Below, piece after piece: positions 61,477 to 61,832 of a DNA stretch of 64,000 nucleotides. The first letter of the stretch is position 1, and every line of letters begins with the position of its first letter. The position numbers were made by a program, and so were the translations under genes. The notes below the pieces were generated by a model that did not search any database, was not told the origin of the DNA, and saw only the letters and a list, made by a program, of their open reading frames with translations. Source of the DNA: Escherichia coli (GTDB lineage: Bacteria; Pseudomonadota; Gammaproteobacteria; Enterobacterales; Enterobacteriaceae); the NCBI RefSeq assembly GCF_048403405.1, contig NZ_CP183129.1; one strand, given 5' to 3'.

Positions 61477-61832
61477 TTAACAAAGGCGCTCCAGATCGTG
61501 TGCATATAATTCAGCGGCTACCGATTGATAGATCTTCCAGTCAATAAAATTGCCATCAGGGTAGACTTGTTGAAACGCGGTTAAGTCGGGGAAAAAACGC
61601 ATGGTGTTGTTGCCGATGCGGTTATTTATTTTCTCTATGATGGCATGAAGATGTTTTTTCTTTGCTGACGCATAGCCAACAGTTGCTCGACTACACGATC
61701 AGGAATGGCGTATTTGCCATTTTCCCACTGACGCCAGCTTTCACTGTCACCGGTCTGGGCAATCCAGGTCGCGCATTCATCAATAGTCATGGCAAAAATA
61801 TGGCGGAGTGCCTGGAGTTCATAAGCGTTCAT
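61477..61832 (-). pseudogene. ydiL: ydiL (DUF1870-type small protein) interrupted by a 1-nt frameshift in a homopolymer
   Basis: ORF from ATG (complement 61830-61832; MNAYELQALRH...) stops after 65 codons at TAG (complement 61635-61637); a stop-free frame (HLHAIIEKINN...DLERLC) continues in the adjacent frame to TAA (complement 61477-61479); junction at T6 61654-61659; one extra nt gives a single 118-codon ORF. Confidence 0.6.

Follow-up and report, generated by a model that had tools for sequence, protein, structure and literature searches.

The closest described relatives of the ydiL product are Aca2 and the YdiL protein of Salmonella (PDB 1S4K), with which it shares the PF08965 domain and a two-part architecture comprising an HTH, a helix termed alpha4 and a dimerisation domain. 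In Aca2 the HTH is constituted by alpha1-alpha3 and is followed by alpha4, a long backbone helix spanning residues 43-70, and then by the C-terminal domain; most of the dimer interface is supplied by alpha6 lying on alpha1 of the partner (PMC8434428). YdiL superposes on both of these domains, and dimeric DNA binding with autorepression is known for Aca2 only (PMC8434428). Salmonella does not require its ydiL gene, which was silent in 22 conditions (PMC8434428), and in a mouse screen the E. coli ydiL promoter was one of the two triggers most consistently induced in the gut (PMC6561318). In contrast to Aca2, ydiL is a stand-alone gene of the core genome that lacks an acr partner and for which no target is known.

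Several types of precedent exist for a change in the length of a coding homopolymer such as the one described here. Homopolymer contingency loci resemble ydiL in possessing a coding homopolymer whose change in length shifts the reading frame; seven bases is short for high-rate switching at such loci, and the ydiL tract differs from them in being short and almost invariant across the species. Lesions identical to the present one are on record in ydiL itself: the Y41 allele, with the same A7-to-A6 change, gives the same 65-aa product (EHN85047.1, EHP65543.1, VED35507.1), and the A6 carriers on record belong to different backgrounds, lying 25-229 SNPs per 11.6 kb from the sequence studied here. 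In the IS1 insAB' motif, an A6C heptamer, about 1.6-2% of ribosomes shift to the -1 frame in E. coli with no established stimulator (PMC4066793, PMC12903888), and 'compensatory' frameshifting is known to occur at a low level where a homopolymer contains an indel (PMC5009743). Finally, about 70% of the consensus errors in nanopore assemblies of Enterobacteriaceae fall in Dcm motifs, the rest being mostly errors of homopolymer length (PMC6591954), and 93-98% of the SNPs discrepant between ONT and Illumina data in E. coli occur at Dcm sites (10.1101/570192).

In the window, by which we mean the entire 64,000-nucleotide stretch of E. coli DNA analysed here, the ydiL locus occupies positions 61477-61832 on the minus strand and contains a -1 frameshift at a homopolymer. 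The plus strand reads T6 at 61654-61659 between a G and a C, equivalent to A6 on the coding strand. The minus-strand ORF beginning with MNAYELQ at 61832 continues for 65 codons (...QQRKNIFMPS), of which 59 specify native residues and the remainder the aberrant NIFMPS, and is terminated by a TAG at 61635-61637, the ORF with its stop thus occupying 61635-61832. The adjacent frame, read from the C following the A6 run, continues without a stop for 58 codons (HLHAII...DLERLC) until a TAA at 61477-61479. This out-of-frame remainder (61477-61652, minus strand) is intact save for its frame and corresponds to the second half of alpha4 and the C-terminal dimerisation domain. Over 501 aligned bp the sole difference between the window and two of its closest matches is one extra A in the run of these relatives, and translation of their A7 sequence yields the 118-aa YdiL (WP_001308680.1). 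These results uphold the reading of the first-pass annotation, which had described ydiL as frameshifted at the T6/A6 run, with a first frame stopping after 65 codons, a neighboring frame open for a further 58 and a 118-codon gene regained by one additional nucleotide. Of 5,426 complete E. coli genomes searched with a 501-bp ydiL query, 5,416 contain the locus and none of these matches the stretch from the window exactly; the best matches were 99.8% identical and spanned 502 bases of the record. The lesion is hence not a statistical feature but a deterministic departure from what the species otherwise shows.

When the missing A is restored, the 118-aa product aligns with the Pfam Aca2_YdiL model (PF08965) over model positions 1-118 of 118 (E = 1.9e-60), and matches Salmonella YdiL (PDB 1S4K; E = 4.6e-47) and four Aca2 structures (PDB 7B5J, 7VJO, 8W35 and 7EZY; E about 1e-14); NCBIfam contains no YdiL model. 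The 65-aa product is likewise recorded with PF08965. A single ORF spanning both the HTH and the C-terminal dimerisation domain is absent from the window, the break lying at codon 60 and the stop following codon 65. Thus, unlike Aca2 and the Salmonella protein, the ydiL of the window is cut at residue 59, within alpha4: residue numbering differs between YdiL and Aca2 by an offset of just 1-4, and with the helix boundaries taken from Aca2 (PMC8434428) the shift falls inside this helix, so that the whole dimerisation domain is lost. Given this loss, the 65-aa product should be unable to form a DNA-binding dimer and should be inactive, and the allele as written should be null.

The length of the tract across E. 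coli was determined by means of 52-nt queries that are allele-independent and cover both codon-58 variants, applied to about 5,300 complete genomes; longer queries of 73-75 nt reach only genomes with matching flanks. When the run is counted in this way against reference copies of ydiL, A7 is found in the approximately 5,300 complete genomes, as opposed to A6 in the window. Among them A6 occurs only in strain B7A (NZ_CP035812.1), in which ydiL and the adjoining ydiK are both annotated as 'frameshifted', and the presence of this second frameshifted gene alongside ydiL suggests indel errors in that assembly. Similarly, A8 is found in a single complete genome, 2014C-3338 (NZ_CP027452.1), where the gene is again flagged 'frameshifted'. 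The ydiL allele types that were sampled all possess A7 (5/5). In an alignment with Salmonella YdiL the tract positions are occupied by Arg/Gln codons, indicating that the A tract is not conserved across genera.

In a larger collection 211 contigs encode the exact 65-aa product of the A6 allele and 389 its K-12-type counterpart, the figures for the A8 products being 63 and 14. The carriers of A6 are polyphyletic: strain 4621, which has A7, is 1 SNP away from the window, all other A6 contigs are at least 25 SNPs away from it, and one pair of A6 contigs has a nearer relative in an A7 contig (L022) than in other A6 carriers. Some of the A6 contigs belong to indel-rich assemblies, in which 12 kb contain 8-17 indel columns. 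Others are clean and recur with the same sequence: the A6 haplotype represented by contigs L011 and L026 is found in one NCBI assembly and at least 3-4 Logan read sets, with an identical common contig of 33,665 bp, and the A6 group of contig L025 is known from seven places. The A6 allele is thus real and inherited in other clones, and the A7-to-A6 change recurs both as a real mutation and as an artefact. Separately, the A6 haplotype of the L026/L011 clone (Logan ERR4036093 and others; GCA_902707415.2) was observed to be identical to the window over positions 55,546-63,184. Homologous recombination from a donor resembling this clone may be the origin of the A6 in the window, should the latter be real.

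The complete genomes closest to the window are those of strains 4621, MS 69-1, TUM14771, GN02461 and TUM1226 and of isolate 68, which show 0-1 further SNP relative to it in 24 kb and possess A7 in all six cases. Over the 64 kb, five SNPs and two indels separate the window from strain 4621, the indels each lying in a 7-nt homopolymer within a gene, namely the -1 change in ydiL and a +1 change in espL1 (28053). One of the SNPs, at 9037 in cho, reflects a private allele of strain 4621 (Cho A85), the T85 of the window being the common allele on more than 1,000 contigs. The remaining four are all nonsynonymous and result in YdjM P24H (ydjM, 22318), ThrS G613S (thrS, an essential gene, 31859), NlpC L102V (nlpC, 40020) and YdiK D9N (ydiK, 63349); all four are absent from every member of the clone that was examined. 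YdjM-H24, ThrS-S613, NlpC-V102 and YdiK-N9 are annotated together on one chromosome of 5,471,390 bp (XPL98304.1, XPL98313.1, XPL98332.1). No contig of 5,471,390 bp is recorded with intact YdiL or with the 65-aa product, which is what might be expected if ydiL is annotated there as a pseudogene. Counting protein accessions from nlpC (XPL98313) to ydiK (XPL98332) gives 19 steps as against the 20 expected if a YdiL protein were present; this arithmetic was not relied on, because in the lesion-free stretch between thrS and nlpC it gives 9 steps where 11 are expected. Contigs carrying YdiK-N9, ThrS-S613 or YdjM-H24 were considered as potential siblings of the window and rejected: they belong to lineages that are 1-2% divergent, and these variants, being homoplasies, say nothing about ydiL in the clone of the window. 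A mismatch-repair mutator is likewise not supported, as the private SNPs comprise two transitions and two transversions.

The second indel offers a separate observation. In espL1 (minus strand, 27601-29500) the window has T8 at 28053-28060 in place of the T7 of strain 4621, so that the type III effector EspL1 is shortened from 632 aa to 493. The espL1 T8 and the truncated EspL1 are common to five Logan read-derived contigs, and the two of these that were fetched (SRR30235505 and ERR5355851) differ from the window by 3 SNPs each. Its occurrence in such near-identical contigs derived from reads implies that this indel is real, and espL1 T8 is an inherited pseudogene of a sub-clade.

The three origins that the first-pass annotation had listed for the ydiL lesion without ranking them can now be placed in order, with an assembly error first, a real inactivation a close second and an introduced lesion very unlikely. 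On balance, and with modest confidence, we regard the missing A as a homopolymer under-call in a nanopore-type long-read assembly that did not undergo short-read polishing. Under this explanation one base of the A7 tract at ydiL codons 58-60 would have been dropped from the consensus of record, and the organism itself would carry an intact A7 ydiL; the gene as written would give a 65-residue product that retains the HTH and ends in the middle of the backbone helix, without the dimer domain. A clue comes from the private substitutions. The SNP at 40020 affects a CCTGG Dcm site at its inner, methylated C, and the one at 63349 immediately abuts a second CCTGG on the 5' side. Thus, 2 of the 4 private SNPs are Dcm-linked, a category to which only 1.8% of window positions belong (P of at least 2 of 4 = 0.0019, for a pattern noticed post hoc). 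Among the SNPs private to siblings, which served as a control, 0 of 7 lie closer than 13 nt to a CCTGG. The combination of a homopolymer deletion with substitutions at or beside CCWGG, in one assembly only, corresponds to the profile of the nanopore errors described above. Two Dcm-linked substitutions and a homopolymer deletion that are unique to one assembly point to a long-read consensus without short-read correction, and in such a consensus an under-call of A7 as A6 is to be expected. We therefore infer that these private differences, and hence the ydiL indel, are base-calling errors; in particular, NlpC L102V and YdiK D9N are probably nanopore artefacts at Dcm sites. Deamination of 5-methylcytosine was also considered for these two SNPs and was rejected, since the methylated C is changed to a G and the second substitution does not fall within the motif. 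Further in favor of an under-call, the ydiL +/-1 homopolymer change is absent from all close relatives, and both of the complete RefSeq genomes with an indel in the tract are flagged 'frameshifted', ydiK being affected as well in B7A; several of the A6 contigs, too, stem from the indel-rich assemblies mentioned above.

Certain observations argue against an under-call. The other 92 runs of at least 6 nt in the window all agree with the relatives, and the espL1 T8 was called correctly. The change at 40020 is a C-to-G transversion, whereas the modification errors of R10.4.1 consist mostly of C-to-T and G-to-A changes, and CCWGG is called well by current models (PMC11610603). The window also departs from the usual error profile of nanopore data in having just three such events in 64 kb, and the density of private SNPs in siblings is of the same order as its own. 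Moreover, other clones possess the very same A6 allele as a real and heritable one, which means that the mutation does occur and is tolerated.

These last points lend weight to the chief rival explanation, which we consider a realistic possibility though not the probable one, namely that a recent replication slippage from A7 to A6, private to this isolate, made ydiL a pseudogene that encodes only the HTH, the gene being dispensable. The same lesion is heritable elsewhere, as in the L011/L026 haplotype and the L025 group with its seven places, and the 65-aa product and its K-12-type counterpart are found on 211 and 389 contigs, respectively. The polyphyly of the A6 carriers, to which A7 relatives can be nearer than other A6 carriers, would accord with such independent events, as would the presence in this clone of one verified homopolymer frameshift, the espL1 T8, in an assembly that shows no other homopolymer discrepancy. 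The dispensability of the gene is consistent with the circulation of other truncating ydiL alleles (see below) and with the non-essentiality of Salmonella ydiL and its silence in 22 conditions (PMC8434428). On the other side, all six complete genomes of the clone possess A7, and no window-like contig with A6 was encountered among the 24 that were read. Furthermore, the other unique differences of this genome resemble methylation-linked miscalls, which again points to a long-read consensus that was left unpolished and would be expected to contain homopolymer errors.

If the A6 allele is real, an additional consideration is the heptamer that the deletion creates. It leaves AGA AAA AAC at codons 58-60 (61653-61659, minus strand), that is, A_AAA_AAC in the zero frame, followed by a -1 frame that is open for 58 codons; this is identical to the zero-frame heptamer of the IS1 insAB' site. 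A -1 slip at this point would give full-length YdiL with the substitution K60N, and a real A6 allele may on this analogy be slightly leaky. In contrast to the IS1 site, which is conserved and serves to make the transposase, the ydiL heptamer is absent from the wild type and is an accidental by-product of the deletion rather than a programmed site. No significant downstream structure follows the heptamer (MFE -11.9 kcal/mol, z = -1.26 against shuffled sequences). Among homologues a two-ORF arrangement is not conserved: the wild-type E. coli ydiL is a single ORF with A7, and the Salmonella gene is without the tract. An elaboration of this, in which the A6 is real and a -1 slip by approximately 1-2% of ribosomes would leave the allele leaky and not null, with slippage between A7 and A6 acting as a dimmer of a gut-induced Aca2-like regulator, is highly doubtful.

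Equally far-fetched are the notions that the base was removed deliberately or in processing, as an introduced lesion, or that the tract is a site of programmed recoding. The latter could appeal to the A6C heptamer being in the right frame for -1 frameshifting and to its match with the IS1 site; against this, the heptamer is confined to rare mutant alleles and ydiL is a single ORF species-wide. With respect to the former, the window agrees with the deposited genome at 4 of the 4 private SNPs that could be checked, which makes an introduced lesion very unlikely, and both of its indels are in homopolymers of at least 7 nt, which account for about 0.35% of positions, so that random planting is also very unlikely. 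Least probable of all is a phase-variable contingency switch operating by reversible slippage, which the first-pass annotation had held possible and which did not survive the census: tract variants of both -1 and +1 length are indeed public and A6 has arisen on many backgrounds, but a tract that is A7 in all but two of the approximately 5,300 complete genomes, both exceptions being annotated as frameshifted, and in each of the five sampled allele types, while being replaced by Arg/Gln codons in Salmonella, is near-invariant in the species and not conserved across genera, so that phase variation is refuted as a trait of this locus.

Thus, the ydiL frameshift is an ordinary event and not a new mechanism, being most likely a miscount or, failing that, a routine pseudogenisation private to this isolate. 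Public databases already contain both this lesion and its truncated product, and RefSeq flags their equivalents as frameshifted pseudogenes; the pseudogene call for ydiL in this genome is not trustworthy without confirmation by short reads or Sanger sequencing. The A7 tract emerges as a recurrent slippage site, and the real loss-of-function clones show that the Aca2-like regulator YdiL is dispensable in nature.

As for the neighborhood of the gene, the RprA sRNA gene that had been reported next to ydiL from the sequence alone is indeed there (61968-62075, minus strand; Rfam RF00034, 118.5 bits), on the same strand as ydiL and 135 nt upstream of its start. The RprA terminator is intact, with a stem at 61997-61978 followed by a T run; RprA is unaffected by the ydiL lesion and the adjacency is irrelevant to the latter. 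No sigma-70-like promoter was found around ydiL. A divergent A6 contig, L028 (Logan ERR11040732), was noted to be one base short in the A8/T8 run of the RprA terminator (window 61977), and also in a C7 run inside ydiK (window 62975); these extra one-base losses are either homopolymer errors or real variants of that sample.

Other truncated forms of ydiL were also encountered. These include 57-aa forms ending in ...MRQQ or ...MRQR, which are found on 79, 40 and 6 contigs, including complete chromosomes. In addition, the match to ydiL in NZ_AP027829.1 ends just ahead of the A tract and is suggestive of an indel at this point in that genome.
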